DNA of 63,835 nucleotides, filler included, from Reclinomonas americana ATCC 50394 (GCA_048213135.1; 8 parts of 3 records of this genome joined end to end with filler, not necessarily neighbours in it), one strand, 5' to 3'. Positions 2,648 through 62,422 are shown, counted from the whole stretch's first letter. The notes: a model not told the origin generated them from the sequence alone. Numbers and translations are program-made.

Positions 2648-5600
2648 GGTGCGCCACCGACGTCGATGCCGGACGATGTGCCGATGTTGCCGCCGCAGGA
2701 GGAGTCGCTTAACGTTGCGTGAATGTTCTCGTCTCATGTGCGCGGAGTAAGCGATTAAGTTTCACTTCTTCACCCCCTGTCACGCGTGTTGTCTTTTCTC
2801 ACTCTCTTGCCCTTCGTCCCTGGTCGCTAATTACACCCCTTCTCCTCCACCCGCGCAGTCACAGACAAGTGGCCAGTCGGGCACATCCCGCGTCGACCCG
2901 CGCAGTTTGCCGACTCATGTCCCCGGAAACTTTTTGCGCGGCCAGAAGGTCGAGGTACGTACCTCGTAGTCATCTCATCTCTTTCCTCCCTCTTCCTTGC
3001 TCATTCCTTTCCTCTGCAGGTCCATCGCACTCTGTCGCAATTGGTACCACCGCCCATGTTTAGCAAGTACGTGACGTATGACGAAGGCAATGCGTCGTCG
3101 CGTTACATGCGCCTGTCCATGTACTGCATCCCGAACACGCGCCGTGAATTGACGGCCACTGGCTTGCCCATGGGAGCCATTGTGACTCCCTTTGCAGTCC
3201 CCGTACCTGGCGAGGTTTGCCCTCTTCACTTACCTCTTCCCCTTCTCCACCTTCTCACCTCTCTTTCTCCTCTCACCCAGGACGGCGTCGGCGAATCCAA
3301 GAGTTTTGCGGGCGAGGTCGACGGCGAGATCACCAAGTGCCGCTGCCGTCGCTGTGGCACCTACGTGAACTCGGGCACGCGGTGGCGCGAGAACGGCTGG
3401 AAGTTCGTCTGCAACATTTGCTCGTGCATCAACGACGTGGACGGCACGTACTACAGCACGCTGGACGGTGACAGCAACCGCACCGATCGTTTCCAGCGTG
3501 TGGAACTCGCCGCCGGTAGCGTCGACTTCCGCATGGCGCCCGAGTACTACATGCCACTCCCCAAGCCGTTGCTGGCCAGCTCCGAGGTTTGTTGCCGTGC
3601 GCGCACACCCGCAGGCACGTCTTTTCCCCCAACAACTCATTCACTTGCATCCACGCACAGTACACGACGGAGAAGATCGATCAGACGCTTGTTGCGGCGC
3701 TCAACAAGAAGCTGTCTATCGATGCCGGTCAGGGCTCGGACCAAATGTCTCGCCGCCAGAGTGCTGCATTTGTTGCGTCGCACATTCTGTCTGTCTATAT
3801 CTCTCCCTCTGTGTGTGTATGTCTTCCTCTCCTTCTCTGTCTGTGTGCATTTGCATGTCCGTGTGTGCTTCCTCTCTACCCCCTCTCTTCCCCTCTCTTC
3901 CCCTCTCTTCCCCTCCCTCCCTCCCTCCCACTCACCCTCCCTTCCCCCGTTCCCTTCGCCCTTTTCCCTTCCCCTCTTTCCCCCTTCTCCCCCTTCCCTT
4001 CCCCTTCCCCCTTCCCCCTTCTCCCCTTTTCCCTTCTCCCCTTCCCCCTTCTCACCCTTCCCCCCTCTCACCCTTCTCCTTTTGCCTTCTCCCAGATTTC
4101 CGGCATTGACGCCCCGCCCGGACTGTACTCGAACCAGCCGCTCTTTGGCCCGGAGACCGACCCGTCGGTCCTCGACGACCTCACCATCAAGTCCCCGACG
4201 GCACCGTCGACACCAGCCGCCGGCCGTGTCGGTCGTCTGGGATCACCGGCGAGTCCGTCGAACCCCACCCTGGGCTCGCCCAGCTCGCTGGCGTCGACGC
4301 CCTCGGGTGTCGGCGCCTCGGCATCGTTTGATCTCGGTCCGCACCCGAACCTCAAGGCCGCCACTCCCATGGCCCACGTGTTTGTCGTGCAGCGCGGCCT
4401 GCTGGTCCGTGCCGTGGCCGACTCGATTCTCGAGAACCTCGACGCGCTGATTGCTCGTCGCGCACGTGTGGCTCTGGTCGTGTTCGACTCGCAGTTGCAC
4501 TTTTACAGTGTCACGGTGAGTGGAATGCATGGGACTAGAAAATAATGAGAGAGAGCAAAGCCACTCACATTGCCTCGTCGTCGTCGCGCAGAGGACGGGA
4601 CGCATCAAGGAGCTGACGGTCAGCAACCCGCACGACGTCTTTGTGCCGATTGAGGATGGTGGCATGTTCCGACTCGGAAGCGACGACACCGACACCCCAC
4701 TCTCGCCGCAGGCGCGTGTGCGCGGTGGCCCGGTGTATCGCAACGAGACTGCTCTGCGCGCGCTGCTGACGAACCCGAACTCGCCGATTTTCGCTCCGCC
4801 CGAGGTGCACCAGTCGGCCGCCGATTCGTCGGCCAGCTCGTCGCGTGGGTGTGTCGGCGCGGCCATGTTGGCGGCCACACAAATGCTGGTGCGTGTGTGC
4901 CATTCTCTCCTTTGTTGTGCTGCGTGACTTTGTTGCTCACTTTTTACATGTCGCGCAGAGTCTGTGCGACAGCTGTGGCGGCCGCATGTACGTGTTTGCC
5001 AACACACCAAACCACCACGCGGTCGGCGCTGGCATGACGGCTGGTCCTCGCTCGACGGCCGGTGTGCTGGGTGACATCAAGAAGGAACACAAGCTGTTGG
5101 TGCCGGACATGCTGAAGAATGACTTCTTTGCGCATCTCGGCCGTGACATGGCCAACTACGGCGTGTGCTGCGATCTGTTTATGGTCGGCCACGAGTACTC
5201 GGACATTGTCACGATTGCCACGCTGCCGCGCATGACGGGCGGCAAGCTGTTCCTCTACTCGGGACTCGGACCGTCGGACTACAGCCAGTTGGTCTCGCAG
5301 TTGTCGACGCACCTGCAGATGCCCAAGTACCGCGACTGCATTTTCAAGCTTCGGTGTTCAACTGGTGAGAGCGCCTCGTGCCGGCGGTGGCGGGTGTGTG
5401 TTGTCGATGTACGTGACTGACCGCGCATGCACGCAGGATTGTGCATCGAGGAAGTGTACATGCCTCGCACCAACATTACCCGATTCGTCAACATGACGGA
5501 GCGTGGTCATCGGGAGTTCTACTTGGCGGGTATGGACCAGGACAGCACCATTACGTTTACGTTCCAGCACGACGACCCCATCCCGGCCGGTGCCAAGTGC

Positions 5601-6979
5601 TGCCTGCAGTTTGCTGTCTTGTTGCGTGACCGCGCGAATCGTCTTTCTCTTTTATCTTCGTACGCTGACTGTGTGACATGTCACAGGTACACGGATGAGT
5701 GTGGAGTGCGGAAACTGCGCTCACACACCGCCACGGTGGTGTCGTCAACATCCATCTCGGCTCTGTACGAGCACTCGGATCTGGCTGCGGTGCTTGGAGT
5801 GTGGAGCATGAAAGGTACACATGCTTACATTCGATTCTCTTCGTCCCGTCTGTTGCTGATCCATAACTATTATGTACAGCTCTGCGCGTCTTGCCCGAGG
5901 AGGGCAAGCAGGCGGCGGCCACGCAGGTGATGGACTCGATGACCACGATGCTGACGGCGTACAAGAAGTTGAGTATTTTTCTCCTCCTTGATTTCTGTGT
6001 GTTTTCGATTCGCCACTCATCGCCCTCCGCAGTGAATGTGGTGGCGAGTCTGCTGTCGGCAAGCTGATCCTGCCGGAGAAGCTCAAGACGTTGCCGCTCT
6101 TCAGTTGCGTCTTTTTCGCGGCGCTTACTTGCTCACATCTTATTGTCGGCAACTGACCCTGTGCCGTGCAGTCATGGCGTTGTTGAAGAGCCCGGTGTTC
6201 CACTGGCCGAATCGGTGTCCACTGGATCGGTCATTGGCGTTCTACTTGGCGTTGGAGAATGCATCGCCCGCCAAGTTGTGGCGCATGCTGTACCCACGCC
6301 TGATGCTGGCCGAGCCAGCCAATTTGATGGTTGGTTATTTTTCTTCTCCCACCTTCGTTCTTCGTCACTCATCTCGATCTTCCCTCTTCACAGTGGGGTG
6401 AACCGGCCGTTGACCACGGCCTGTCTACACATCCGGACGACATTATCATGCCTCCCGACGTGCCACTCAACTCATCGTTTATTCGGACGAGTTCCGTGTA
6501 CATTCTCGACAATGTGGATTTGTGGGGTCAAATTGTTGTGTGGATTGGCGACACCACGCCGCTGGAGACACGGTACGAGCTGTTTGGGTGCGATCCAGTG
6601 GATCAAGCCGACGACCGATTCCGTGACGCTGTGGCTGTGGTGCGTTGCTGTTTGGGGAAGTGTGAGGAAAACCATGAGCTCACTCTTTGCGTGCAGGGTG
6701 AGCTGCCTGACGTGGATTCCGATTACTCGAGAAGAGTACGCAAGATTGTGTACCAGTTGCGCGCCGCACACTCGGGCTTCTTCCCGGTGCGCGTGTTGTG
6801 GCGAACACACGACTTCGCGTCGCGTTTCTTGACGCGGCTCGTCGAGGACAACGTGTGCGGAATCGGCTCATACGGCGACATTCTCGTCCACGTTTACGAC
6901 AGTGTGCACAAGAAGGTTTGCGTTAAGGTCGTCGCGTCACGATTCGCAAACACTCGTAACTCACCATCGCACACAGTAA
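2648..6979 (+). CDS. SEC24: COPII cargo adaptor Sec24 (Sec24C/D-like), 15 introns in the visible part, N-terminus incomplete
   Basis: RVDPRSLP and DEGNASSRYMRLS motifs, zinc finger (RCRRCGTYVN..FVCNICSCIN), trunk (GGRMYVF, CCDLF, TGGKLFLY), beta-sandwich (LRCSTG, LQFAVLYTDECGVRKLR), helical region (KLILPEKLKTLPLF) and gelsolin-like end (SYGDILVHVYDSVHKK). The stop TAA at 6977-6979 directly follows the last intron. Confidence 0.93.
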
Positions 6980-7222
6980 TGACCACGGCGCCACTTTTTT
7001 TGCCACTACACCACCCCCCAAGAGAAAAAGAATGAGGCATGCATGTCGTGCCTCGCAGCCAGCCCCCAAGTTGTCCATGTGCATGTTTTGAAGAGAAATA
7101 GTGAAACAAGAAACGATGAAAAATGGGGAAAGGGAGAAGGAAAAGTGCAAAGTCGTACGTATAAGTGAAGTCTGTGCAACTTCACAGGACGCATTTCCCG
7201 CGCACTCACTCATCCGCCTTAA

Positions 7223-10200
7223 ATGACCAGTCGCGGAGGCCGCCGCGCCTCCACGCCCCAAGCCACAGAGGCACACACGCCTCCTCCGCCTGCGCCTCTG
7301 GTGCAACCAGGCGGAGAAGGCGGCGGCGCCAGTCCGGTCCTCACGCGACACATGTCCGAGTCACTCGTGCGCGCACGCACAGCCTCCTCGCCCACTTCCG
7401 CAGGCGCCACTCTGGTGCTCGTCGGGCAAGACGACTTGAAGATCGTTGTTGCGTCTCTCTCTCACACTCACTCGCTCTCTCACTCAGCGATTGATCGCTT
7501 CTTTTCCCGCCAAAACAGCGCATTGAGAACTTGAGCGCGGCTGCGACGCCTCTGATCTCGCTCAATCTCTCACACAACTTGATATCGCGCGCGGATGGTC
7601 TCTCCGCTGTGGCTGCATCGTTGACTGAGCTCAACTTGTCGGATAATCGTCTGGAGCGCCTCGATGGGATCGAGGTGTTGTCGCGATTGGAGGTGCTGGA
7701 CGTGTCGTGGAATCGCCTGGAACGCCTGCCGAAGCGCTTCCCGTGGGAGCGATTGAGTGTGTTGAGGCGGGTGGACTTGTCGGGCAATCTGTTGGGCGTT
7801 GTGCGCGATGTGACGCGCCTGCGAGCGTTGCCGCAGTTGTCGGAGCTGTCGCTGCGCGACAACCCGCTCGAGTCGTTGCCGCATTGGCGCGCGTTGACAG
7901 TGTTCGCGTTGCGGTCGCTGGCGGTGCTGGATGGCGATGCGGTCACCATGGAGGAGCGTCGGCGAGCCGATGAGCATTGGGATCAGTGTTGCGTGCCGAC
8001 GAGGGAGAGTGAGTTGGGCCAGGGGATGAAAGCTTACTGTGGTGCATCGTGTAGCCGAGTTGGAGGCCATGCGTCGTGTGGCTGCCGATCGAAAGAAGGA
8101 GGCGGAGAGGTATCGCATCGAGGCGGAAGAGCAGCGAGCGCGTGCAGAGATCGCGGAGAAGCGCGTCGATGCAGTCAAGGACGAGTGTGCGCGACTGCAA
8201 ACACGCAACACGGAATTGGTGGAGGAGCTCGACATCAAGTCTAAAATGGTGCGTGCCTTGCACCCCTTTGTCACCGGTCGACACATGCGTGGCTCACGCG
8301 CGTGTCTGCACAGCTTCAGCGCAAGGCCGTGGAACTGAATCGCGCCCTGCAGCAACTCTCGCTGCTGCAACAGGAACTAGACGAGGCGCGCATCGATCGT
8401 CAGTTCAGCGAGGCACCGTCGTTCACCACCACTACCGTGACGGGCTCGGAGAGAACCGCGACGCACACCACCGTGGTGCACGGATCGCCGACCGCCACTG
8501 GACCGCAGACCTCCGGCACGTTTGTTACGCCACCCACATCGACGCCAGACTTGCGCGCCAGCCGAGCGGAGACTCGGTGCGTGTGACACTCACTCTCTTC
8601 TCTGTCGCAAACGAGTATTCATCGGTGTGCAGGTTCCACGCACAAATGGTCGAGCGACTCGCAGAGTTGGAGACGCAGCTGCTCGAGGGCCGCCGGCAGG
8701 AGAGTGACATTGAGGAGCAACTGGGCAAGCTGGAGAATCGTCGCGGGACGACAGCAAGCGTGCTGGAACGCATGGCGGCATTCGATCAGTCAGTGATGGA
8801 TGTGACAGGCGACGACTTGGGCTTGAGTTCCGGAGGTGAGTGCATGTGCCGTGTCTCTTCGTGTGCGAAACGTGGCTCATGGCGAGTGCCGCAGAGAGCG
8901 GCAGTGACACGGGTCACCACGATGCAGCCGCCCTCCGTCGTAGTGCTGTGCTGACCGTGTCGGAGCCGTCGGCATCGAGCGATCTGCTGGAGAAGATTTC
9001 GCAACTCAATCAAGAGTGCCTGGTGATTGTCAGCGGTGCGTCGCCCTGCGCCCCTCGCCGCCACGCAATGCACTTAACTCGCATTCTTTCCCATTGCTTC
9101 TTGTGCAGACTCGCAAAACACGGTTCGTCTTTGCCTAAAGCACTTTTTTCTCACGTCGACTTTATAGTTCTCCGTGCCCTCATTCCACCACGCACAGGGC
9201 TCCTCATCGTCCTCTGGCTACGCCGTCTCGCAACGGTACCTGAGCATTCACCAGCAGCTGCAAGACTTCCTCATTGAGGCGTCCAAGTACCGCAACTTTG
9301 CCGAGGAGACGGTGTACAATCTCACTGTGGAACGCAACGTTGGATTGCGCACAATCCAAACTCTCACGGCAGAGAAGCAGGCACTCGATGCCGAGATCAG
9401 TGCTCTGCGATCGCGACTGAAGGCCCAGCGTCATCTCAACCAGCAGACAGAGGCGCTGCTGGACGAGGTGCACGCCGTCACAGTGTCATCGGTGCGAGAA
9501 TGCTTCCCCCCTTGTCTGTGTGTGCGTGCTTGTATGTGCTCTTCACTCAACACAGTGCGCGCTCGCCAGACGGCCTCGACCAAGATCGATGCGTCGGCGT
9601 ACAGCGGCTTTGCCGTGGACCTTCTCAGCACGCTGGCGTCACGGCATGTTATCACAGTCATGTCGGCAAGTGTGGCCTCGTCGCTGCGACAGCATCGCGA
9701 TGTGCACTCGCTGGTGGAGGCCACAGCCGACGCCGTCGAGTCGCTGCTGGACGATTACAAGGCGGAGGACGTCACAAAGGGTCTCGCGCTCGACGAGGCA
9801 CGCATGGACACGGTGCAAATCTGTGCGTTCTGCTTTCAAGTTTGTCACAGTTTGTGCGCGTCTCATGCCAATGCGATGCGCGCGCCTCACAGCTCAACTG
9901 CGCTCCCGTGTGAGCAAACTCGAAGAGGATCTTCTGATGGAACAAAAGAGTCGGCGCACGAGCGAGCAACAGGTGACGGCACTGAAAGCGATGCTGAGCG
10001 GCAAACAGCAGCTGGCAGTTGCGTGCACACGCAGCATTGTCGGCTGAATTGAGTGACTCATCGCCCATCACAGGGTGCCTCCTCGTTCATGGAGGGCGCC
10101 GAGTCTCCATTGTACACGCGGTATGTGATGGCGCTTTGCCTCATGGTGCGCATGAGTCATGTTGTGTGACTTGTGTGTTTGTGTGGCTGCAGTGGTCGGA

Positions 10201-13200
10201 CACCGTCACCCACGCTATCGTTGCGCTTTGTGAGGTGTCTGCGCAGTAGCTCGTTGCTGACGATGTGTGCAGAAGCCCTGCGGAGACGGCAATGCATGCG
10301 GAAATGGCGGAATCCCGACGAGCGCTCACCTCGGTGAAGCAGGAGCATGAGTGGTGCGTACGCGTACTATTCTGTGGTTGTTTCTTGGTCACCTGTGTTG
10401 AAATGGGTGCACAAAACAGGACGCTGCAGCAGCTGCATGAGGCACAGACGGAACTGAATCGCGTACACCGTGCCATTCACCAGTTGTGTGCTCGTGTGCT
10501 CCCTGATCTTCCAGAGTGGTAGCTGACTGGTGTATGTCGGAGCAGATCGTCGGCCGAATTGCACGATCTGGAAGCGACGCGCACCGAGGTGTCCGAGCAG
10601 TGTGATACGCTGGCCGGTTCGTGCTCTGCCTGGAAAGCACATCGAATGGCACGAATGTTACTGACCGTCCTTGGCAGATCGTGCAGCACAGTACGAGAAG
10701 AGCGCGTTGGATTTGAGTTTGCACGTCGGTTCGTGACGTAGCACACGTGTGCATTAATTGTTTTCCATTTTTCCCATGTTGATGGTGTGGCGCAGAGGAG
10801 TTGCGACGTGAAAAGGCCACGCTTGACACGGAGATTGCGAATGCGACGACCGAGATCAATGCCCTCGAATCACACCTCTCCCACGTGCGCGACGACCAGC
10901 GCCACTCTCACGATCACAATGATGATGGTGATGACGACGAGGAAGGCGATGATGATGAGCACGGTGGTGTGGGTGGCGGGCGGCGCCTTCCACCACCAAT
11001 GCAGGCGAGCTCTGGCGACGAGCGTGAGCCGGGTGGGGTGGCGGCGTACGCTGGCGAGCCTGGTGGCCTTGCGCAGTGGAAACTCGATCTGTGGAACGAG
11101 ATTGCATGCATGGAGGTAAATGTGGCGGTGGCACAACGTGTTGCCTAGCTTTCTCTCTTTGATTCCCATCGACTGCGACGCACAGGACGACCTGGATGGC
11201 GCCAACTTGCTGCTGTGCGAGACGTCGGATCTGACGAGCCGCGATGAACGGATTCGTGATCAGGAGTCGATTATTGCCGCGCTGCAAAGACAAGCACGTG
11301 ACGCAACCGATGCTGCCACGCGCCTGCAGCGCGATTTGGAGGACGCGCGAAGCAATGCCGGTCGACAGCAGACCGACCGCGACACGGCCAAGGCGTCGGC
11401 CGCGATCTTGACCGAGCTGGACGCAACGCGGCGCGAGGTGACGCGGCTGGAGAGCGTGCATCGCTCCGACGTGCAGACCATTGAGGCGTTGCGCACAGAG
11501 TGAGTCGTCGTGATGCCGTCAGCGACGCATTTGCACTCGTGTTTGACTCATGTGTGGTGGATGATGTAGGCGTGTGGAGGCAGAAACATTGCGCGCCGAG
11601 GTACGAAATGCTGCTGCGTCATCCGCTTGTCTCTTTTGCTGCTGACATCGCCACAGCTCAACAATTCGCAACGAGAGTTGCAGCAGGTGCACCAGGAATT
11701 GGAGTCTGTTCGGTTAGTCAACCACCACTGCAGCAGTGCTGCCTTCTTCCTGTCTCACACAGTCCTGACCATAGTGCACAACTGGCCAATGCGTCGGCCA
11801 CCACTGCACGCACGCCATCGCCACCGACTGCCGAAGTTGCGCGAAGTGATTGACATTCTTCTCTCTCTCACTCACTCACTGTCTCAACCACGGCTGGTGT
11901 GCGCCACAGCCCTCCGAGGCAGCTCGCGAGGCTCACTTCTTGCGTGCCGAGTTGCAAGCACGCGAGCAGGAGATTTCCGGACTCCGACAAGCCGTCGCTA
12001 CCAAGGATCGGGCGCTGTCAGATCGATGCGAACTCATTCGGCGACTGGAGGATCTGCGCGCTCACGATCTGCGTGAGCACATGGAGGCCGCACTCGAGGG
12101 TCGCAACCCGGAGATTTTGAGCATTGCGGCCGACTTGTATCGCCGAGAGGTGACGTCGACGTTGTATGAGGACTGGTGTAGTTTGATCTGACTGGTGTTG
12201 TGCAGGCGCTCCGGCTACACGAGCGACTGCGGGNNNNNNNNNNNNNNNNNNNNNNNNNNNNNNNNNNNNNNNNNNNNNNNNNNNNNNNNNNNNNNNNNNN
12301 NNNNNNNNNNNNNNNNNNNNNNNNNNNNNNNNNNNNNNNNNNNNNNNNNNNNNNNNNNNNNNNNNNNNNNNNNNNNNNNNNNNNNNNNNNNNNNNNNNNN
12401 NNNNNNNNNNNNNNNNNNNNNNNNNNNNNNNNNNNNNNNNNNNNNNNNNNNNNNNNNNNNNNNNNNNNNNNNNNNNNNNNNNNNNNNNNNNNNNNNNNNN
12501 NNNNNNNNNNNNNNNNNNNNNNNNNNNNNNNNNNNNNNNNNNNNNNNNNNNNNNNNNNNNNNNNNNNNNNNNNNNNNNNNNNNNNNNNNNNNNNNNNNNN
12601 NNNNNNNNNNNNNNNNNNNNNNNNNNNNNNNNNNNNNNNNNNNNNNNNNNNNNNNNNNNNNNNNNNNNNNNNNNNNNNNNNNNNNNNNNNNNNNNNNNNN
12701 NNNNNNNNNNNNNNNNNNNNNNNNNNNNNNNNNNNNNNNNNNNNNNNNNNNNNNNNNNNNNNNNNNNNNNNNNNNNNNNNNNNNNNNNNNNNNNNNNNNN
12801 NNNNNNNNNNNNNNNNNNNNNNNNNNNNNNNNNNNNNNNNNNNNNNNNNNNNNNNNNNNNNNNNNNNNNNNNNNNNNNNNNNNNNNNNNNNNNNNNNNNN
12901 NNNNNNNNNNNNNNNNNNNNNNNNNNNNNNNNNNNNNNNNNNNNNNNNNNNNNNNNNNNNNNNNNNNNNNNNNNNNNNNNNNNNNNNNNNNNNNNNNNNN
13001 NNNNNNNNNNNNNNNNNNNNNNNNNNNNNNNNNNNNNNNNNNNNNNNNNNNNNNNNNNNNNNNNNNNNNNNNNNNNNNNNNNNNNNNNNNNNNNNNNNNN
13101 NNNNNNNNNNNNNNNNNNNNNNNNNNNNNNNNNNNNNNNNNNNNNNNNNNNNNNNNNNNNNNNNNNNNNNNNNNNNNNNGTGGAAAAGGAGAAAACACCA

Positions 13201-16200: not shown

Positions 16201-17827
16201 CACGATTGCAAGATGAAGGTGTGTTTTGACGTGAATGTGTGTGTAGCACCCTTGGAGGCTTCTTACGTGGACGCGCAGTGGAAGCACTGGAGACCACGTG
16301 CAGGAAGCTGCGCGCCGATTTGGACGCGGCGCAGATGAGCGTGACGATCAAGGAGCGCGAGGTCGCTCGTCTGCGGGAGGAGCTCGCCGAAGCGCAGCAC
16401 GCTGAACAGAGCCGGTCGTCGGCAGTCACCGAGCTGCAGCAGCGACTATCGGAGAGCGAGCGTAACATTACCGAATTGCACGGCCGCGCTTCTCGCGTGC
16501 AAGAGGTTGCGGAGATAATTGGATTCGTGCTTTAACCGTCCTCCCATACTTATCTTCTCGTGAATTTGCAGCTCGAACAGCGCGCCTCTACTCTGGCGCA
16601 AGCTCATGAGTTGCATGCGCGTGAGGTATGATGTCCCCGGGTGCAAGGAAATGAGTCTCGTCTCTCACCGTGCGTGGTTTTGAATGCCACAGCTGCAGTC
16701 ACTTGAGCAGCGACACGAGTCAGCGTTGCACAACCAGAGCCAGTCGCTGCGCCAGTCGTTCGAGGAGACACTGCAGGGCGTGCGTGCCAAGGCCAGTGAG
16801 GATCTGCGTGCAGCGGTACGTGATTGCGACACTATTTGTGTTCGCGGGGCATGCATCCACTCACTTGCATGCGCTTGGCAGGTGTCTCGCGAGGCTGCCG
16901 CCCGACGCGAGGAGGTGGAGACTTTGCGTCGATCGCATGCCGCCGAGGTGACAGAGTGCTCACGCTTGGCGCTGTTGTGAGATTGTACGTGCGACTCATT
17001 CGCGCGCACGATTCGTTTCGCAGATTTCACGCCTGCAGCAGCAGTTCGACACACGATTGCAGGAGTCGGTGAGTGCAAGTGCCCTCACGCTTCCAAGATT
17101 GCGTACAACTCATGCGCCGCGCACGCACAGCTGGATGCACTTGCGCGTCAGCACAGCGAGGAGTTGGAGGCGTTGCAGTCGACTCACACGCGCGAGCTGG
17201 CACGCTTGCGTGAGTCGCAGATCGGTGCCGAGGTGAGCAGCAGTCGTGCAGAGCCTGCGTGAGGCATGTGNNNNNNNNNNNNNNNNNNNNNNNNNNNNNN
17301 NNNNNNNNNNNNNNTTAATTAATTAANNNNNNNNNNNNNNNNNNNNNNNNNNNNNNNNNNNNNNNNNNNNGGAAATGGAGATGCTGATCGTGTTGCTGCG
17401 CAGGAGACCATGGTGGAACTGCGGTTGCAGCTGGCGCACTTTGAGGGGCTCACGTCTGGTTTGTACAACGGAGGCTGCTGCACGTCGGCATCGAGTGATT
17501 CTCACCGCGCGGTTCCCGTTTGCAGAGTACCGCAAGGTGGCGAGTGAGATCGCCGACGAGAAAGTGGCCCTGCAACGCAAGGTTCACAAGCTGAAGCACA
17601 AGCTGCGCGAGCTGGGTGCGACAGGCGTCCATCGCACGGTGGCCAGTGAATCGCGACGTGCATCGTCGTCGACGGCCTCGTACCAAGAACACCACCGGCA
17701 GACGCCGTCCGTGTTGCAACAGCAGCACTATCGGCAGTCGTCACGAACCAACATGACCACCATCAGCAGCAGTAATAGCAGTAGTGGCAGTGGTGGTGGT
17801 GGCGGTGGTGGTGGAGACTTTTATTAA
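7223..17827 (+). CDS. Large N-terminal LRR + long coiled-coil protein (centriolin/LRRCC1-like architecture), many exons, spans two gaps
   Basis: SDS22-type LRRs (LISLNLSHNLI, LTELNLSDNRL, LEVLDVSWNRL, LSELSLRDNPL) with an LRRcap (WRALTVFALRSLAVLDGDAVT), followed by E/Q/R/L-rich heptad exons joined by GT-AG introns. Stop at 17827. The orthologue cannot be assigned, and the section across the gaps could be two genes. Confidence 0.7.
17271..17370. other. Artificial contig linker N44-TTAATTAATTAA-N44 (cores also at 38633, 43493, 47326, 49220, 57455, 60556)
   Basis: An identical 12-mer with stops in all six frames, flanked by N runs, occurs seven times. Confidence 0.97.
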
Positions 17828-17891: not shown

Positions 17892-18953
17892 ATGATCACT
17901 GCCTCCACCGAGTACCACTGCAGGCGGCTGCCAGTTGGCGAGACGGTGAACTCCGTCGCCCTCACTCCCGACGGCCAGCACATTATCAGTGCTAGTGGCG
18001 GATTCCAGAGCAGGTCTCTCCGAGTGTGGTCGGTCACGAGTGGAGAGCAGGTGCAGAGCATCGCAGGGCACGAGGATACCGTGTGTTGCGTGTGCGTCAC
18101 TCCCGACGGGCAGCACGTTGTGAGCAGCGACAACTGCGGATCGGTGCGTCTGTGGTCACTGGCAAGCGGGGAAGAGGTGCGTCGATTCAAGGGCCACAGT
18201 GATTGGGTGGGAGCTGTCACGGTCACTGCCGATGGCCAGCACATTGTGACGGGCAGCTGGGATAGCGCGGTGCGCATATGTTCCATGGAGACGGGCGAGT
18301 TGGTGCGGTGGCTGCGAGGTCACATGGCAGCAGTGTCGTCGGTCGCTGTCACTCGCGACAACCGGCACGTGGTGAGCGGGAGTTGGGATGGAACGGTGCG
18401 GGTGTGGTCGCTTACAAGTGGGGAGGAACTCTGTCGCAACGAAAGCCTGTTCTGTCGAGTGTTTGCTGTGGCCATCACCCCCGATGGCCTGCACGTGGTG
18501 ACTGGAGGGGAGACCACAGTGGTGCGCGTTCTGTCGCTGGCAAGTGGCGAGGAGGTGCAACGACTGGAGGGACACACTCACAAGGTGACGTGTGTCGCCG
18601 TCTGCGCCAGTGGCCAGTTCGCGGTCAGCGGCAGCCTGGACGACACAGTGCGGCTGTGGTCGCTGGCGACGGGAGAGGAGGTGCGGCGGTTCGAGGGGCA
18701 CACGTCGCGCGTGTCGTCGCTCGCCATCACCCACGACGCGCACCGCATCGTCAGCGGCAGCTACGACAGCACCGTACGCGTGTGGTCCTCACCGCTCGCC
18801 CTCGCCCGCCACGAACTGCACTGCGCACGACTCGCCACGCTCGCCACACAGGAGATGCAGTCGGTTGACGAACAGCGCTGCCTAGTGGAGACCGTACTAC
18901 GCTGCTTCATCGTCGAAGAGGCGCAAGTTGTCGTGACTCGCTGCTGCTTATAA
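17892..18953 (+). CDS. Intronless 7-repeat WD40 protein with conserved C-terminal tail (family copy 1)
   Basis: Single ORF with seven GH..V..VAVTPDG.H.VSGS.D..VRVW-type repeats; tail LARHELHCARLA..RCLVETVLRCFIVEEA. Confidence 0.9.
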   Translation: MITASTEYHCRRLPVGETVNSVALTPDGQHIISASGGFQSRSLRVWSVTSGEQVQSIAGHEDTVCCVCVTPDGQHVVSSDNCGSVRLWSLASGEEVRRFKGHSDWVGAVTVTADGQHIVTGSWDSAVRICSMETGELVRWLRGHMAAVSSVAVTRDNRHVVSGSWDGTVRVWSLTSGEELCRNESLFCRVFAVAITPDGLHVVTGGETTVVRVLSLASGEEVQRLEGHTHKVTCVAVCASGQFAVSGSLDDTVRLWSLATGEEVRRFEGHTSRVSSLAITHDAHRIVSGSYDSTVRVWSSPLALARHELHCARLATLATQEMQSVDEQRCLVETVLRCFIVEEAQVVVTRCCL

Positions 18954-18966
18954 AACCCGTTCGTTT

Positions 18967-19372
18967 TTATCTCCTCGGAACACCATTCAAGTGCGGAAAC
19001 GCTGCAAACGTCGTCGTCAAGTGCTTTGCCTGCACCTGCACCGTCTCCAGCTGCGTCTCTGCCAAGCGAATGCACTCCTCGATTTCTGACGATCATGCAA
19101 TCAGCTGCTGCACGACCACACACACACATATATATACACACAAACGCACTGCACGGGCACGTCTCTCGCTGTGCTGCGCGGAACTCCCGTCGCGCCTTGG
19201 CCACCACAAACGCCCGTCGATTCTCCGTCGGCATTCCACGTGCCTCCTGCGCCATTCACAGTGAGCCTCTTCCCCCCTCCATGCATGTAGGCGACACCTC
19301 AGTATAAGAAGGTGGCAACGAAACGCGAAGAATGCCGCGGTAGAGCGTCAACACACGACTTCGCGAACTCAT
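18967..19372 (-). CDS. LYR-motif (Complex1_LYR) protein, 3 exons
   Basis: Spliced product MSSRSRVLTLYRGILR-EARGMPTENRRAFVVAKARREFRAAQRETCPCK-IEECIRLAETQLETVQVQAKHL...; the LYR tripeptide and downstream R.EF motif are present. Confidence 0.85.
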
Positions 19373-19454: not shown

Positions 19455-22400
19455 ATGGGGAACAGGTGCGTGCCTTGTGTGTGCGTGTGTGTGTGAGACG
19501 TGTGTGTGCGTGTGTGTGTGTGTGGCAACCCGAACGAAAGTTATTCATGCATTGCAACGTGTCGCGAAGTTGTCGTGCATTGTGTGTGTGCGTGTGCGTG
19601 TGTGTGCCTCTCTCTCTTTCATTCTCCATGCACACGAGCGCATCACAAAGAGACGATGAAGAGCGCGCGCGGAAAGCGACATGTCCACCGCTCTCACTCT
19701 CTCTCATTGTTTGTTAGCTGTTGTCGGCCTGTTCGGCGACACAAACGGCTGTTGGAGGATGTGTACCGCGCATCGGTGCCGAAAGCGCAGGCGATGAGTG
19801 TGATTCAGGCATTGAATCCGGTGTCGGTGGAGCCGGGGGCGGCGGATCCGTGGACGCTGAGCAATTCTCGTGAGTTGTCTTGCGTGTCTCTGTGGCGAGA
19901 GGAGAAGTGCAAGATAGTGAGAAGACATGTGCAGCGCGAGTTGGGTTTGGAGAGAAGAAAACGCGAGAGTGATTGGGAAGACAAGTGCATTGCAAGTTGG
20001 GTTGTTCACCAAGGGTGCATGAGAGTTAGAAGCGCACTGTGCAGTCAGTGAGCGAGTGGTGAGACGACAAGTGCGTGATAGTGAAGAAACGCAAGTGCTC
20101 AGGTATGTAGTAAGCGAGAAAGAAGCGATTGAGAAGACAAGTACATTGCAAGTTGGGTTGCTCACCCATGTGGTGCGTTGTGGGAGCAGAAGATCACTGT
20201 GGTGAGATGATAAGTGCGTTCATGTTGGGTTAGTGGGTGTTAGGAGCGAAGAATCACAAGTGCTCAGGCGTGGAGTGAGCGAGAAAGAATCGATCCTTCT
20301 TGAGAAACAAGTGCATTGCAAGTTGGGTTGTTCGCCAATGTGGTGCATTGTGAGTGGAGAAGGGCACTGTGCGTACTGTGCGTGAGTGGTGAGACGACAA
20401 GTGCACGATAGTGAAGAAACGCAATGCAGTGAGAAGCGATTGGGAAGACAAGTGCATTGCAAGTTGGGTTGCTCACCATGTGGTGCTTTGTGAGTGGAGA
20501 AGGGCGCTGTGCGCCCTGTGTGTAAGTGGTGAGACGACAAGTGCACGATAGTGAAGAAACGCGCAAGTGCTCAGGCATGCAGTGAGCGAGAAAGAATCGA
20601 TCCTTCTTGACGTGCATTGCATGTTTCCACCAGGGTGCATTCAGAGAGCACAGAAGCGTTGCGCCATGTACCCTGTGACTCTTGAGAAGACACACAGCAA
20701 GTGAGAAGCGCTGCATTAACTCCTGTTCTTCCTTCTCACGCAGTCCGCCTCTGTGCCACCATTTGCTCATCTTTCCTCTCTCCCTCTCTCTCTCCCTCTC
20801 CCCCTTCTTCCCCCATTCCCGCAGAATACGCCCACTGCTTGCAAGTCGACGAGCGCACCACCAACAAGATGCTGACGTACCTGCAAACGAATCCCGATCG
20901 CCTCCGCTCCATTGCCCGCTCGCTGCGGAAACGCGTCATTCGCGACATGCAGCGCACACGCGAGCCGCGCGTGGTGGTCGGCATGGGCGTATATATGGCA
21001 CTCTTTCACGCCATGCCTCGCGAGTCGTGGTACCTGCTGTCGGACTACTTGACGTCGGCCACGGCTCTGTTGGAGCACCCGGTGGTGGTGTACCGGCAGC
21101 TGACTGTGGAAATGGTTGGTCAAGGAGCACACTCTTTTACGCGTGAGTCTGAATCTCACTCCCCTGTCCTCCAGTTGGACCAGCTGACACGCTCCGGCAA
21201 TCCGTTCTCCGGCGACATTAACATTCTCATGCAGCCTCTCCTCAATGTGCTCACCCTCCTGCTGGCACAAGTCGATCCCACTGTCAGCCGCTCCATCGAG
21301 TTGCGTGTGACGAATAATGTTGACGGCAGATGCGTCTCTTCGCCTCCTCACTTGCGGTATCTGTGGTCGCCAGTCTGCGTGTCAGCTTGCTGAATAGCAT
21401 GGGTCGCATTGTGCACTTCTTGGGTGGCCAGTCGGCTGCTCGCCGACAGGATGTGATTCGAGTGGCGCTGCGCTCCTTGGCTGACACGCTGCCCGATAGG
21501 TTTGGCAGGCCTCCTCGTACACCATGCTGCTTCGCCTTCCCTGCTAACTCCTGTGCGTAGTCTCGACGATCTGGAGTCGACGCCCGCCGAGACGCTCATG
21601 GTGCTCCAGGCCGCCGAAGAGTGCCTGTTCTGGTGCATCAGCGTTGAGCACACACGACGCATTCTGACCTCGTCGTTGAACGCCATTATGGAGTTGCGCA
21701 CGCCGTAAGTTCCCACTCACACGCACCTCTGCTGAAACCGAGACTTCTCGTCACCAGGTTCATTGACGACGCCGATTTGTGGCACCGCAAGACCTTTGTC
21801 CGCGAGTGCTTCCGCATGGCGCTGTACGGATCGTCGCGCAGTGTGGCCGCCTATGTCAAGGGTCGACTGCTCCGTGTCACCAACCCGTCGGCCGTGGTGC
21901 CACCGCCTCCCTCGGCGCAGTCTGCGGTTGCGTGCGCACCATGTCTGTCTTTTATTGACCTTCATGTGCCTGAACGAGTGGAGCTCCGACAGGCACTCGG
22001 TCGCACCACATCTCGCCGTCGCAGCGGCAAGGCACGCGACGGTCACGAGGGTGCAGCGGACTCGTCGCCATCGCGAGGCAACAGTACGCGGCGCTCACGA
22101 CGCACTCGCGACACGGCTGCTCCCACGGGTAAGCGTGACGGAGGCGCCGCAGTGGCTGCCACGGCGTCGAACGGAACCACACGGCGCGAGGTGCGTCTCG
22201 ATACGACGGCTCGTTCCACCATTGAATCGAGATCAGTGTTGCGTCAGAGTCCCTTTTCATCATGTTCCGTGACGATTTACTCGCTCACAAACATGTGCTT
22301 CAGTCCCCTGGAGCCACTCGAGGCGTCGCGTCGCATGTTTCCGCTCGCGCAGCGACCGCCGAGCATGGACTTGGAGCCGCTGACGGCGGCCGAAGGTGGA

Positions 22401-49003: not shown

Positions 49004-49071
49004 CGCCTCTGTTTGTGCATTTTGTAACATAAAGTGTACAATTTATGTAAACTCGTCGCTTGTGTGGTGGA

Positions 49072-53725: not shown

Positions 53726-53730
53726 CATTC

Positions 53731-53959
53731 GCGAGAGGGAGAGGGGGAAGGAGGGAGAGGGTGAGGGAGAGGGAGAGGGAGAGGGTGAGGGAGGGCGGAG
53801 AGGGAGGGAGAGGGAGGGAGAGGGAGAGGGAGGGGAAAGGAGGGCGGGTGAGAGGGAGAGGGAGAGGGAGAGGGAGAGGGAGAGGGAGAGGGAGAGGGAG
53901 AGGGAGAGGGAGGGAGGAAGCAGGAAAGATAGACAAACAGACAGACAGACAGACCGACC

Positions 53960-53997
<38 letters not shown>

Positions 53998-54006
53998 AAG
54001 AAAGAA

Positions 54007-54040
<34 letters not shown>
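53731..54040. repeat. (GAGAGG)n / (GACA)n / (GA)n microsatellite cluster
   Basis: Seen directly in the sequence. Confidence 0.95.
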
Positions 54041-54042
<2 letters not shown>

Positions 54043-57410: not shown

Positions 57411-57510
57411 NNNNNNNNNNNNNNNNNNNNNNNNNNNNNNNNNNNNNNNNNNNNTTAATTAATTAANNNNNNNNNNNNNNNNNNNNNNNNNNNNNNNNNN
57501 NNNNNNNNNN

Positions 57511-60430
57511 TGACACCGACGGACAGACGCCAGTGCGGCTGGGAGGGCGTGGGCGTGGCGAGGAGCACAAACGCACCGTCATTGAGCTGGAGCGCATCCT
57601 TGAGAGTTGCGGCATGCCTCTCTGTGTGTTTGTTGAAGGAGCGTGGAGACAGCGGTTACTCATGCATGTGTTCCAACTGCAGCGGGAAGTGCGGAGGCGC
57701 GACCCGCAACTCACGAGTTTCGTACATATATTTGTTGACACGATGCATTCCCCCCGCAACATCATCTTGTACCCATGATTGCGTCACTGCAGGGAAACAC
57801 TCGCGCTCATTCGTGCCGAGGTGACAGTGGTGAAGCCGTTGCTGCGTGAGCTGGTGCGTCACTGGCAATCCCTTTCTTTCTCTTTCTCTCTCTTTTTCGC
57901 ACTCATATTCCCTTGCCCCACAGGTCCAGCAGCGACTGCAGGACTTCCAAGAGCGCTTTTCCGCAACTCGGCCGCCATTCTCCGTGCGCGGCTGGGAAGT
58001 CACGGACCGTGAGCACTGGAGGTACACGGTTTCCGGCGTTGGAGTGAACTGCCGGTGTCGATCTGCTGACTCTGTCCACGCTTCCTGCCTCGTGTGCATT
58101 CAGGTACATGTGGTGCTGGAAGGCCGATGAACCGCCGCACGTGATTCGGTGCGAGTCCAAGGATCTTGCGTGCCTGCTGGAGTGGTGCGATTCGGGCAAG
58201 TGCGAAACATGGAACACGTCGTTTCTGCTCACTGTGTTGACGGACTGCGGATTTATGCCAGTTTTGTGACTGCACGTACCCTACACTGCGTTGCGTGTCG
58301 TTTGTTGACGAAGGTGTACGCTGGTGTAGGATTTTTCTTCCACCCCGGACTGGCAACCGCGACCATTGCCCGCCGACAGTGAAGCATCGGATCCGTCGGA
58401 TTTGCGCCGCCTGCTTCCGTCCAACATTGCGCATGTTGCGTGCGATGTTTATCTTTGTTCTGCATTCATTCTCCTGTCTGTGAGCTGAATGGCAGTCTCG
58501 GTGTGTGTGTGTGCAGATTGATTTTCCGCGTGCAGTGCTCGAGGAGCTACTGAAACCTGCAGCTCGACGCGTTCCCGACTGTGCCGCTCTCCGTGGTCCC
58601 GATGGACACTGCCGGTATTACCTGCCACCGGCGTCGGAATCTCCAGTCTATTTCCGCTACTATCCTGTGGACAGTGAGTGGAGATGGGCCATCAAGTCGG
58701 AGCCGAAGAATCAGCCGTGGCGTCGCACCAAGGATAAAGTGGACGCGTCGCTGGGACTTCCGGGCTACGTCGTGCAGTTGATCGAGTTGCTTGGACGCGA
58801 CTCACCACCGCCGTTGTTACCTGTGCCACTTGTGCACGAAAGCGGATTTGTTGCGTTTTCTCCATCTGCGCGTTTTTGCGGCGACTGCTGGCACGGAGAC
58901 CGACTGTTTCCTTGTTTCACTGTTTAGCGGGACGCTCTGGCATTGGTGAAACTGTTTCTGAATGAGCGTGAGCGCCAGCAAGAGCAAGGACTGGCGTCAT
59001 CGCTGGACGCGCTTGGCGCCATTCGCGAAGCTGTCCGCGCCCTCGCGACTTTTATTAGAGAACGCAGTCGAGCTCAAGAATGGCAAACACTGATTGGCAA
59101 GCTGATTCCGGAGTCTGGCGGCGTTGGCGTTGGTGCTCGTGGCGTTGTAGCCGGTGATGGTGTTCGTGGCGTAGGCGGCGGTGGTAGTGGCAGTGGCGCT
59201 GGCGGGAGTGGTGGTATTGGCGCTGGTGGAAGTCGTGGTATTGGCGCTGGTGGAAGTGGTGGTGGTGGTGCGTTTGCTCTTGGTTTCGTTGCATTCAACC
59301 AATGTTCAGCTGCAATCTGAAACGAGAACCCTTGATTTCGTGCACAGTTGGCGTGAAGCTGCCGCCTGGCTTTTCGATGGACGGACAGGGTTCGTCCTCG
59401 CCGGCGAGTAGTGGCAAGCATCGACCACCGAGTGACGGATTGCCGACGCTGCACAAGGCCGTGGAGACCGGCAAGACCAAGGCTCTCATGTACCTCATCT
59501 CAAGAAAGGAACTGCTGTGTTCACTGGATGATCGCGGACGAACCCCGTTGCATGTTGCCGCCGCTGTGGGAAACCTCGAGGCGGCAGAACTGCTGCACAA
59601 GGCCGAGCCGCCCGCTTTGTCCATGACGGATTCCATGCGCCGACTACCTCTGCACTTGGCTGCTGCAGCGGGCCACTTGGCCGTTGTTCAGTTCCTGGTC
59701 AATCTGTGGCCTGCAAGTGTCGAGGTTGCGGATGCGGAGGGAGCGCTTCCCATTACCCATGCTGTTCGCGGCGGTCATGCAGCCGTGGTGGAATGGCTCA
59801 AGGATGCTTCGAAGGAGGCACAGTCGGCGTTGGTCGTTGAGCGGCTGTCGGACTTGGCGCGCAGTGCCGAGCACACGGAAACGCTGTATCTGCTGTCGCC
59901 GTGGTCGTCGTGGTCCAGGGTCGATGGAACCGAAGGCGCGCTTGACAGTGCCCTGGCATGGACCCTGGAACGGTGGTATGAGTCGCGGCCGCCACCGCAA
60001 TTGGGTCAGCCGTGCCCTCTGCGATATGTGCCACGCCGTGCCGAGAATTCTCGCCCCGTTCGGTTTGTATGATATCTGGGTGCTGCTACTGTGTGTGGTT
60101 CACTGCGACTCATTCTGGCCTGCAGCATTCTTGCAACGCTCAAGTCCGTACCGCCGGCGGAGGTCGCAGTGTCGGTGTGCTATTTTGAGGAAAGCGGTGT
60201 GGAGCACAAGATTGTGCGCCAGGAGGTGCGACCGGGCGAGGATGCGTTCTGGCGGCGCCTCACCAGTGCCGAATGTCGTGAGAAGTGCGGTGGTGATGCC
60301 GATGCCCTCTGTCCCGCCTGTTCGCATCCTCTGGTGGAGGGTGAATGCGGCGAGCTGCGGCAGTGTCATCATGTGGCACACGTGCAGTGCTTGCGGTCAC
60401 GGCTCACGGCACCTGCGACTAACGGTCCGT
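57511..60430 (+). CDS. Ankyrin-repeat + RING-H2-like protein, internal fragment, multi-exon
   Basis: Four ankyrin repeats (TLHKAVETG, GRTPLHVAAAVGNLEAAELL, RRLPLHLAAAAGHLAVVQFLV, GALPITHAVRGGHAAVVEWL), a Gly-rich linker, and the RING-H2 pattern CPAC-x14-CHHVAHVQC. Confidence 0.75.
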
Positions 60431-60615
60431 GTCATGTCATTCCCTCTCCTCTCTCTCTCTCTGTGCTTATTCGTAGCGAGTGCAGATCGTTGTCGCTTGT
60501 ACTGTCCGTGCNNNNNNNNNNNNNNNNNNNNNNNNNNNNNNNNNNNNNNNNNNNNTTAATTAATTAANNNNNNNNNNNNNNNNNNNNNNNNNNNNNNNNN
60601 NNNNNNNNNNNCCAG

Positions 60616-62422
60616 GGCGTGTGCGTGCAGGCCAGCACGCTCGGCTCGCTCGAGGCGCTGCTGGCGTTCTTGAAGACCAGTCACATTCCGGTGTCGGGTA
60701 TCAATATTGGGCCGGTGTTCAAGCGCGATGTCACGCGTGCGAGTGTGATGTTGGATGTGAAGCCGGAGTTTGCAGGTGTGGAGAAGGGGAAGGGGTGGTA
60801 GGGAAAGGATGGAGGAGAGGGGGAGAAGAGGGGGACAGGGTGGAAGGAAGCAAAGAGAAGGAGTGCCATGTTATTGGCAGTTTAGTTCGGTGTTCGGCGA
60901 AGGAGAGAAAAGGACGATGGAAGGGAAGGAAAAATGGCAGAAGAGTGCACTCAGTGCGTGTGGATGTATTGCTGTTGTTTTGCGGGTTTGAGAAATCTCT
61001 GTGTAACTTGCATGCTGATTATTCGTAGATTGCGGGTAAAGGTTGCGGAACAAGCATTGTTTTTCCTTGCTGTGAATTCTGTGGCCTTCTTGCACGAGAG
61101 GTCAGAAATTTCTTGCGTTGAGAGATTCTGGTGACTCGAGAGAGACCTCGTGTTGTTGGAGTCGCAGTTGCAATCTCGTGATTCTTCCTTTCTCTGTGAC
61201 TCGAGTGATCTGTTGCGATATGAGATTGTGGATTATTTTTGAATTGCAGCAGCGTGTCCTGATTCTTGTGCCACTGTCTTGCGATCGTGGTGTGCTCCTC
61301 TGTGAATCGAGTAATCTTCGATGTGTGTGGGAGGGCAGCGATGTCCTCAGTGGCAGAGTTCTTTCCGTGCACACGCCATCTGCTGGTTTGATGCTCATTG
61401 CTTGTCTCTTCCCAGTCATTCTCGCATTCGACGTGCGTGTGGAGCGTGAGGCTCTCGAGCTGGCCGAGTCACTCGGTGTGCGCATCATGACTGCCAATAT
61501 CATCTACCACTTGTTCGACCAGGTGCGTTGCTTTGCATCGAGTCTGTCACTTGCGCTGCGTTCTCATCGTCCTCGCAGTTCACGGCGTACATGGCCGATC
61601 TGGAGCGCCGAAAGCGCACCGAGTGCGTTGTTTGTGTTTGTTTGTTTCTTGATTCAGCACCGCTTACCACTTGCATCGCAGGGCCGAGGCTGAAGTCGTT
61701 TTCCCTGCCGAGATCACCATTCTTCCGCGTCACGTGTTCAGGTATTTTCATCTCCCGCTCCCCCTCCCCTTCTCTTTCCCCGCTCACTCTTCCCGCCCCC
61801 ACAGAACGCACGAGCCTATTGTCGTTGGCGTGCAAGTGACGCGTGGCATCCTGCGCGTTGGCACGCTGGTGGTGTGCCCCGAGAAGGATGTTGCGTCGCT
61901 TTGGTTGCACTCCACGATAAGTGGCCGATGGCGCTGATCCCCCACTCGCAGAACCTCGAGGTTGGCATTGTGTCGAGCATTGAGGAGAATCGCAAGAGCG
62001 TGCAGCAGGTGGTGAGGGGTGCACAGGTGTCGATCCGTATCGACAACCGCCCCGGCCACCCCGCGCGTACCATTGGTCGCCACGTGCCTGAGCAAGCGAC
62101 CTTTGTCAGCAAGATGACCCGCAAGAGCATCGACGTTCTCAAGGGTTTGTGTTGATTGTGTGTGCCGTGGTGCGATGGACTCGATCTCACTGTGCTTGTG
62201 GCCTGCACAGAGTACTTCAAGGACGAACTGAGTTTCGTGGCACTGCAGTCGGTTGCATCAATTACGACTTCATGACTCACCGCTTTTTGTTTGTGTGTAA
62301 CGCAGCCAAGGAGGATTGGAAGCTCGTTGGTTGCGTCTCCTGCTCTGCGCTCGTTCGTGCTCTTTGTTTGTGCTCACCTTTTGCACACAGTGGATCTCAA
62401 GCGCATCCTCGCCATCGACTAG
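60616..62422 (+). CDS. EIF5B: Translation initiation factor eIF5B, C-terminal part
   Basis: [72 protein letters not shown] and [37 protein letters not shown]. Confidence 0.96.

Follow-up and report, generated by a model that had tools for sequence, protein, structure and literature searches.

Roca and Krainer are said to have described, in 2009, shifted-register 5′ splice sites, at which U1 small nuclear RNA (snRNA) pairs one position downstream, and a bulge +2/+3 register of U1 pairing was reportedly added by Roca et al. in 2012. Rare mammalian donors of the GUUAAGU type are reportedly read by U1 in a shifted or bulged register, a finding of Roca and Krainer that a preliminary description of the DNA analysed here had cited. 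Shifted and bulge +2/+3 U1 registers are described for rare human sites, and of 201,541 human donors 1.5% fall under the validated noncanonical registers, all taken together (PMC4856993). In plants, animals and fungi, the coupling of a G at the last exonic position (-1G) with a G at intron position +5 (+5G) or a T at +6 (+6T) is negative, a compensatory ‘seesaw’ (PMC10599564). Here we analyse a 63.8-kb stretch of DNA from Reclinomonas americana ATCC 50394 (GCA_048213135.1), hereafter the window, which contains a second class of predicted 5′ splice sites (donors), typified by GTTGCGT. The G+C content of the window is approximately 58%; its sequence is broken by many N gaps, and its introns are short. 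A full-text literature search, without supplements, returned no report of GTTGCGT/GUUGCGU donors, nor of a mainstream shifted class in any organism.

We define ordinary donors by the presence of +5G, and shifted donors by the presence of +3T and +6G and the absence of +5G. The preliminary description had named 32 shifted donors, 31 of them with a coordinate, and a heptamer of the expected kind (GTTGCG[T/C/G], GTTGAGT, GTTGTGT or GTTTCGT) is present at all 31. The remaining donor, assigned to a gene with a LYR motif, corresponds to GTTTCGT at 19324 on the minus strand. The earlier hand count, in which 29 of the 32 sites follow an exonic base other than G, is reproduced exactly: the -1 base is T in 13, A in 12, C in three and G in three of the 31 listed sites, and C at the LYR donor. 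The three sites preceded by G are 16506, 21927 and 62330. Eight further shifted donors were found at 11488, 23444, 23816 and 57606 on the plus strand and at 35153, 33213, 33075 and 32909 on the minus strand, the latter four in a Spo11 gene. In the resulting hand-made union of 40 shifted donors, four follow a G. All three phases and both strands are represented in the class, which is spread over at least ten genes. Two donor classes exist as had been described, unified by a heptamer G-[G/T]-T-G-C-G-T that is cut either after or before its first G, and, as an observation made on the sequence, the second class is real and confirmed.

Gene models came from a dynamic-programming gene finder that rates coding potential by a 3-periodic model, looks for YAG acceptors accompanied by a CTNAY branch motif and applies a length prior; three donor terms were compared. 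Versions without the length prior fused adjacent genes and were dropped. When the donor term demanded nothing beyond GT, 21 of the 31 claimed shifted sites were used, and an equal bonus for both donor classes raised this number to 26. A gene finder with a bonus for ordinary donors only recovers just 8 of the 31 sites, and the homologue profile scores drop as well (see below). The five claimed sites that are not used even with the bonus for both classes are 7448, 10220, 10483, 21693 and 36003. For the first four, frame-consistent acceptors exist, which would give introns of 71, 53, 63 and 65 nucleotides (nt), respectively. The putative shifted donor at 21693 has a canonical in-frame competitor, GTAAGT, 12 nt farther downstream, which makes it doubtful.

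The motif also emerges from the models as a word. GTTGCG is the commonest donor hexamer in the donor-agnostic runs (10 of 60 introns in one set and 18 of 101 in the other), and its presence at 18 of 101 donor-agnostic intron starts compares with 0.8% of the remaining GT dinucleotides (p=4e-19). On the plus strand, 21 of the 25 GTTGCGT heptamers are located at frame-consistent intron starts, and 27 of the 50 GTTGCG hexamers are used as donors by the model with both classes. Within the window, the predicted shifted class is statistically strong.

For the analysis of the exon ends we used the donor-agnostic model, from which genes with less than 450 nt of coding sequence were dropped, and retained introns that were no longer than 150 nt, ended in a YAG acceptor and carried a CTNAY branch motif (101 of 130). 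Ordinary donors make up 57 of these 101 introns and are preceded by an exonic G in 44 cases (77%). Shifted donors account for 22 (~22%, about one intron in five), and only two of them follow a G (Fisher p=3.1e-8 versus ordinary donors). The difference is retained when all 130 introns are taken (-1G in 55 of 73 ordinary versus 4 of 29 shifted donors, p=1.4e-8), and in the model with both classes (47 of 81 versus 3 of 27, p=1.5e-5). The association had earlier been worded as one between a -1 base other than G and the combination of +3T and +6G. It holds for the position of the downstream G, at +5 or +6, but not for +3T itself. Ordinary donors with +3T (GTTTGT, GTTCGT and GTTGGT) are preceded by G in 11 of 13 cases, hence it is the position of the downstream G, and not +3T, that decides the preference at -1.

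The same rule had been claimed for two individual genes, where it needs some correction. In Sec24, all five shifted donors follow a base other than G, but nine ordinary donors are modelled from 2666 onward rather than ten. All nine follow a G if the donor at 4889 replaces that at 4895, a change that improves the profile score by 3.0 bits. In the PHB-depolymerase-like gene, all six shifted donors follow a base other than G and the ordinary donor at 31689 follows a G, but the other ordinary donor (31208 or 31214) follows a T or a C.

Beyond the cut site, the two classes have the same box, displaced by one base. The box is much less variable in the shifted class: the dinucleotide GC is found at +4/+5 in 18 of 22 shifted donors and at +3/+4 in 16 of 57 ordinary donors (p=2.5e-5), where it is the commonest dinucleotide, and the T that follows the G is present at +7 in 15 of 22 shifted and at +6 in 35 of 57 ordinary donors. 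The median intron length is 67 nt in both classes. The branch motifs (CTCAC, CTCAT or CTGAC, 19-20 nt from the acceptor) and the CAG acceptors are also alike, in a set that was pre-selected for YAG and CTNAY. The introns with shifted donors are major (U2-type) GT-AG introns. A U12-type identity was considered and rejected, as there is no [A/G]TATCCTT donor among the modelled donors and the branch motifs are those of ordinary introns and not TCCTTAAC-like. With respect to an introner or mobile origin, intron starts read by eye, without alignment, have no similarity beyond about +8.

Protein homology provides a separate view of individual junctions. Homologues were collected using single-exon queries, profiles were built, and alternative spliced models were scored against them. 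The Sec24 profile gives 509.0 bits for the model with shifted donors versus 449.1 bits for the best model with ordinary donors only, and the alignment is gapless at 5621 (QFAVL/YTDE, within a conserved Q.ALLYT motif), at 5968 and at 6104 (LPLF/IMALLK). The profile of the eIF5B C-terminus gives 281.4 and 241.1 bits, respectively. The in-frame alternatives cost 18.2 and 5.1 bits at 5621, 14.8 bits at 5968, 6.8 bits at 6104 and 6.4-6.7 bits at 62330, and they are neutral in the less conserved stretches around 2714, 3772 and 61890. In Spo11 (minus strand), consecutive exons match positions 1-75, 83-100 and 137-170 of the Toprim profile in the same order, and the lengths between the matches fit Toprim within two residues across the shifted donors at 33213, 33075 and 32909. 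Altogether, eight junctions, distributed over three conserved genes, have support from homologue profiles.

A refined model of eIF5B, to which a long intron and a missed exon were added, reaches 334.8 bits in a single end-to-end alignment. The model with both donor classes had passed over the added exon of 60 nt (61682-61741, plus strand), whose inclusion lifts the profile score from 291.9 to 334.8 bits. Its donor, CAG/GTATTTTC, falls in neither class. The gene ends with two micro-exons, 62211-62231 (21 nt) and 62306-62329 (24 nt), each followed by a shifted donor, and both are required for a gapless conserved C-terminus.

The shifted donors are listed below with the coordinates of the heptamer, the strand, the last exonic base (lower case) and heptamer, the gene where it is assigned, and the support.

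2714-2720, plus strand: c/GTTGCGT, Sec24; donor-agnostic model, profile neutral (unconserved region)
3772-3778, plus strand: t/GTTGCGT, Sec24; model with both classes, profile neutral
5621-5627, plus strand: t/GTTGCGT, Sec24; gapless profile alignment, alternatives cost 5.1 and 18.2 bits
5968-5974, plus strand: a/GTTGAGT, Sec24; gene model and profile, in-frame alternative costs 14.8 bits
6104-6110, plus strand: a/GTTGCGT, Sec24; gapless profile alignment, GC donor at +3 costs 6.8 bits
7448-7454, plus strand: t/GTTGCGT, start of the LRR/coiled-coil gene; motif, 71-nt frame-consistent intron, unused by the models
7988-7994, plus strand: t/GTTGCGT; motif, donor-agnostic model
10018-10024, plus strand: a/GTTGCGT; motif, donor-agnostic model
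10220-10226, plus strand: candidate c/GTTGCGC; motif, 53-nt frame-consistent intron, unused by the models
10483-10489, plus strand: candidate a/GTTGTGT; motif, 63-nt frame-consistent intron, ordinary GTGTGC in frame at +3
11488-11494, plus strand: c/GTTGCGC, new in this analysis; donor-agnostic model
11836-11842, plus strand: a/GTTGCGC; motif, donor-agnostic model
16506-16512, plus strand: g/GTTGCGG; motif, donor-agnostic model
19318-19324, minus strand: c/GTTTCGT, LYR-motif gene; gene model, Complex1_LYR in exon 2
21300-21306, plus strand: a/GTTGCGT, EFR3-like gene; motif, donor-agnostic model, EFR3_ARM in exon 1
21693-21699, plus strand: doubtful a/GTTGCGC; motif, models favour the in-frame c/GTAAGT at 21705
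21927-21933, plus strand: g/GTTGCGT; motif, model with both classes
22238-22244, plus strand: t/GTTGCGT; motif, donor-agnostic model
23306-23312, plus strand: a/GTTGCGC; motif, donor-agnostic model
23444-23450, plus strand: t/GTTGCGT, new in this analysis; gene model
23816-23822, plus strand: t/GTTGCGT, new in this analysis; gene model
25007-25013, plus strand: a/GTTGAGT; motif, donor-agnostic model
30943-30949, plus strand: c/GTTGCGC, esterase (PHB-depolymerase-like) gene; motif, model with both classes
31102-31108, plus strand: t/GTTGCGT, PHB-depolymerase-like gene; motif, model with both classes
31458-31464, plus strand: t/GTTGCGT, PHB-depolymerase-like gene; motif, donor-agnostic model
31827-31833, plus strand: t/GTTGCGT, PHB-depolymerase-like gene; motif, donor-agnostic model
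32001-32007, plus strand: a/GTTGCGT, PHB-depolymerase-like gene; motif, donor-agnostic model
32158-32164, plus strand: t/GTTGCGT, PHB-depolymerase-like gene; motif, donor-agnostic model
32903-32909, minus strand: c/GTTGCGT, Spo11/TopoVI-A; gene model, Toprim positions continue across the exons
33069-33075, minus strand: a/GTTGCGT, Spo11; read by hand, preceding exon matches Toprim 83-100
33207-33213, minus strand: g/GTTGCGT, Spo11; gene model, Toprim profile
35147-35153, minus strand: a/GTTGCGT, Spo11; model with both classes
36003-36009, plus strand: candidate a/GTTGCGG; motif, ends an open frame, acceptor not found, N gap at 36166-36185
37708-37714, plus strand: t/GTTGCGC, CE2/SGNH esterase gene; motif, Pfam, donor-agnostic model
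57606-57612, plus strand: a/GTTGCGG, new in this analysis; gene model
58435-58441, plus strand: t/GTTGCGT; motif, donor-agnostic model
58850-58856, plus strand: t/GTTGCGT; motif, donor-agnostic model
61890-61896, plus strand: t/GTTGCGT, eIF5B; exon needed for the profile match, GC donor at +3 differs by +0.5 bits
62232-62238, plus strand: a/GTTTCGT after the 21-nt exon, eIF5B; gapless C-terminal alignment, the sole in-frame options (GT at +5, GC at +8) require a moved acceptor
62330-62336, plus strand: g/GTTGCGT after the 24-nt exon, eIF5B; gapless KEDWKLV/VDLKRIL, GC donor at +3 costs 6.4-6.7 bits

We hypothesize, with a probability of about one half, that the shifted donors are read by U1 in a register displaced by +1. 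Ordinary donors, G/GTNNG[T/C] and mostly G/GTGCGT, would offer anchor Gs at -1 and +5, and shifted donors, [A/T]/GT-T-GCGT, in which the GCGT box lies one base farther from the cut, would offer them at +1 and +6. The 5′ end of U1 would then grip both classes by the same pair of G-C anchors, which involve C9 and C4 of U1 and are spaced five bases apart. U1 would sit one base downstream on the shifted class, with the intronic G+1 occupying the slot of the exonic G-1, and the end of the exon would thereby be freed from the requirement for G. The cut would be made at the sole GU within the first three positions of the heptamer, a choice that U6 and U5 presumably settle at a later step. At that stage, U6 would come into contact with G+6 and U+7 only if the additional U+3 were looped out. 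That GC is almost invariant at +4/+5 suggests that the weaker shifted sites need the rest of the box to be perfect. The loss of -1G is predicted exactly by a +1 shifted register and not by a simple bulge at +3, and this prediction is supported. The shifted sites fit the normal U1 register poorly, as +5G is absent by definition of the class. Of the bases that would pair in the displaced register (G+1 with C9, G+6 with C4 and U+7 with A3), G+1 and G+6 are present in all 22 by the same definition and U+7 in 15 of 22, and 4 of 22 sites fold in this register with canonical U1 (see below).

Several results weigh against this reading. Duplexes were folded with ViennaRNA against the canonical U1 5′ end, AUACUUACCUG, as printed in PMC4856993, in a calculation that ignores pseudouridine and proteins. 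The mean predicted energy is -2.2 kcal/mol for shifted versus -5.6 kcal/mol for ordinary donors; 36 of 57 ordinary donors fold in the normal register, but only 4 of 22 shifted donors fold in the +1 register, and none of the 22 in a bulged one. Canonical U1 would favour AA, not GC, at +4/+5. Genes for U1, U6 and U5 were not found in the window (there is no Rfam match at gathering score, and at E<=1 only low-complexity, microRNA-like matches appear). Before exonic GT dinucleotides in general, G is present in 24% and A or T in 46% of cases, and the depletion of -1G in the shifted class relative to this background is marginal (p=0.07 in our own set, p=0.04 in the earlier list). The -1 base of the shifted class is A or T in 18 of 22 (p=6e-4), with both G and C rare. 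An A at -1 would be accounted for by pairing to U10 of U1, a T would not, and no pairing model that we considered explains the T. At 2714, 3772 and 61890, homology does not tell the shifted donor from a GC donor 3 nt downstream. Another 22 of the 101 donors fall in neither class, and several of these probably lie a multiple of 3 nt away from the true site. All results come from one 64-kb window and from home-made gene models that contain errors.

The preliminary description had also seen in the two cut positions an easy route to sliding of introns by 1 nt. A change of the second base of the heptamer from G to T would shift the cut, and with it the frame, by one base. A compensating one-base move is not open to a canonical AG acceptor; the proposal is therefore not supported, on reasoning only, and no example was seen.

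The weak predicted pairing with canonical U1 (-2.2 kcal/mol) favours an alternative in which the snRNA itself is changed or duplicated, so that a non-canonical U1 5′ end, or a second U1, would read GUUGCGU directly and strongly. Such a U1 might match the GCGU box through G-C at positions 5-6; alternatively, A in place of C at position 8 of a second U1 might make it perfect for the shifted class. When each of the 16 dinucleotides was placed in turn at U1 positions 5-6 in a naive scan, GC gave the best predicted binding to both classes (-8.2 and -7.0 kcal/mol) and the canonical UU ranked 12th, and the GC box in 18 of 22 shifted and 16 of 57 ordinary donors is in line with this. On the other hand, the Rfam scan revealed no snRNA gene within the window, the duplex modelling is naive with respect to pseudouridine and proteins, and GTGCGT-like donors occur also in GC-rich genomes with canonical U1. 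The U1 5′ end is, to our knowledge, nearly invariant across eukaryotes. We consider a changed snRNA possible but unlikely. The same tentative standing applies to the broader proposal of a changed spliceosome with a genome-wide dual-register donor code, in which the U1 5′ end would have co-evolved to the GCGU box (G-C for two pseudouridines) or two U1 variants would differ at position 8; if true, approximately one fifth of all introns would rely on a mode of recognition that is rare elsewhere. In a bulged register, G+1 and U+2 would pair normally, U+3 would be looped out, and the GCGU box would pair as in an ordinary donor. GT-T-GCGT is indeed an ordinary GTGCGT into which a T has been inserted, a bulged fold is favoured in our model by some of the alternative U1 dinucleotides, and the +2/+3 register has been validated for a few human sites (PMC4856993). 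However, C9 of U1 would still be free for an exonic G-1, so that 77% -1G would be expected, by statistical inference, where 2 of 22 are observed, and none of the 22 shifted sites folds in this way with AUACUUACCUG. We regard the bulged register as rather improbable.

Two further explanations would remove the shifted class altogether. If these were GC-AG introns, the real cut would be at the GC three bases downstream (GTT/GCGT), and the GTT would be exonic. Such a cut is in frame at nearly all GTTGCG sites and neutral to the profile at 2714, 3772 and 61890, three of the six testable junctions, but at the other three it costs 5.1 (5621), 6.8 (6104) and 6.4-6.7 bits (62330). It is impossible for GTTGAGT (5968 and 25007) and GTTTCGT (62232 and 19324), it would demand that exonic GTT be invariant across the three codon phases, and the +5 position after such a GC is not consistently G, which together make GC-AG introns very unlikely. 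The shifted class could also be an artefact of the gene models, if the motif were a word common in introns or coding sequence and splicing in truth used other GTs nearby. The models are home-made and imperfect, five of the 31 sites stay unused even with the bonus for both classes, and 21693 has a canonical in-frame competitor. Yet the motif emerges from a model without a donor term, 21 of 25 GTTGCGT on the plus strand are at frame-consistent intron starts, and eight junctions in three conserved genes are backed by homologue profiles, and we find an artefact hardly credible.

Per-exon Pfam scans identify Sec24, an LRR/coiled-coil gene, four WD40 genes, an EFR3-like gene, a CE2/SGNH esterase, an ankyrin gene and the C-terminal part of eIF5B on the plus strand, and Spo11/TopoVI-A and a LYR-motif gene on the minus strand. 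Sec24 (plus strand, 3281-6639) comprises the zinc finger, trunk, beta-sandwich, helical and gelsolin domains. The EFR3_ARM domain is located in exon 1 of the EFR3-like gene, and the Complex1_LYR match (E=7e-4) in exon 2 of the LYR-motif gene (18897-19372, minus strand). Among 1.84 billion representatives, the best full-length Sec24 has 31% identity, and a fragment of 104 residues reaches 71%; the best eIF5B C-terminus has 58%. A word-index protein search with a Sec24 exon gave no match. Metagenome contigs were also scanned for the DNA of relatives, using the Sec24 exon and the 71%-identical fragment (P0003), and neither scan confirmed a locus. For the esterase, EFR3 and coiled-coil genes, the per-exon Pfam signal is too low for junction tests.

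Upstream of the first modelled Sec24 exon, the segment 2037-2650 consists of a degenerate repeat of ~150 nt in 4-5 copies, with a conserved core GCGACACGTGTTGGCGTA..GACTTGTCTT and CT-rich spacers between the copies. This tract may represent a promoter, 5′ exons or an intron. The Sec24 intron 3772-4095 (plus strand, 324 nt) is full of CT-rich, microsatellite-like CCCTTC/CTCTT runs, and is longer than the usual introns of 55-80 nt. The WD40 coding stretches at 17892-18953, 27306-28349, 28701-29683 and 45757-46686 (plus strand) are paralogous, having in common VRVWSLASGEEV-type repeat units and a C-terminal tail RCL.E.VLRCF.VEEA, and form a local multigene family. The PHB-depolymerase-like esterase gene (plus strand, stop codon near 32615) and Spo11 (minus strand, stop codon near 32670) are convergent, with stop codons ~55 nt apart. 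At 31040-31075 (plus strand), the esterase gene encodes SGLGGGAFMA, possibly without serine as read by eye, at the position where a G-L-S-x-G nucleophile elbow is expected in this family. In eight places there is a fixed N pattern (44 N, 12 bases, 44 N; for example at 17271-17370, 38589-38688 and 43449-43548), which has the look of an artefact of masking or scaffolding and interrupts several genes. Beside these runs there are also larger gaps, of 472-946 N.

For gene annotation, the consequence is that a donor model with +5G only mis-builds the genes of the window, losing 60 bits in Sec24 and 40 bits in eIF5B and recovering 8 of the 31 claimed sites. If confirmed at the RNA level, the shifted class would show flexibility of the U1 register at work in nature on a large scale, and would permit tests of the choice of the cut site independent of the position of U1, and of the co-evolution of snRNAs with the donor consensus.

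Like GC-AG and U12-type introns, the introns with shifted donors form a minority class coexisting with ordinary GT-AG introns; unlike these, they have a GT dinucleotide and an ordinary branch site, length and acceptor, and no donor of the ATATCC/GTATCC type is found among the modelled donors. The resemblance to the bulge +2/+3 register (PMC4856993) is that a shifted donor can be written as an ordinary donor with a U added after GU; a bulge would keep the preference for -1G, which the shifted class of the window has lost. A parallel also exists with the human shifted-register sites, which are likewise cut at GU, lack +5G, have G+6/U+7 in place of G+5/U+6, can fill the C9 slot of U1 with G+1 and do not need -1G. 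The human examples have an AAGU-type box, whereas the box in the window is GCGU and its predicted pairing with canonical U1 is very weak, and all validated human noncanonical registers together reach 1.5%, compared with ~22% of introns (22 of 101) here. As in the seesaw coupling (PMC10599564), the -1 base in the window depends statistically on intronic positions. The sign, however, is opposite to that in plants, animals and fungi: -1G and +5G co-occur in the window (44 of 57), and the sites that lack +5G are without -1G as well.

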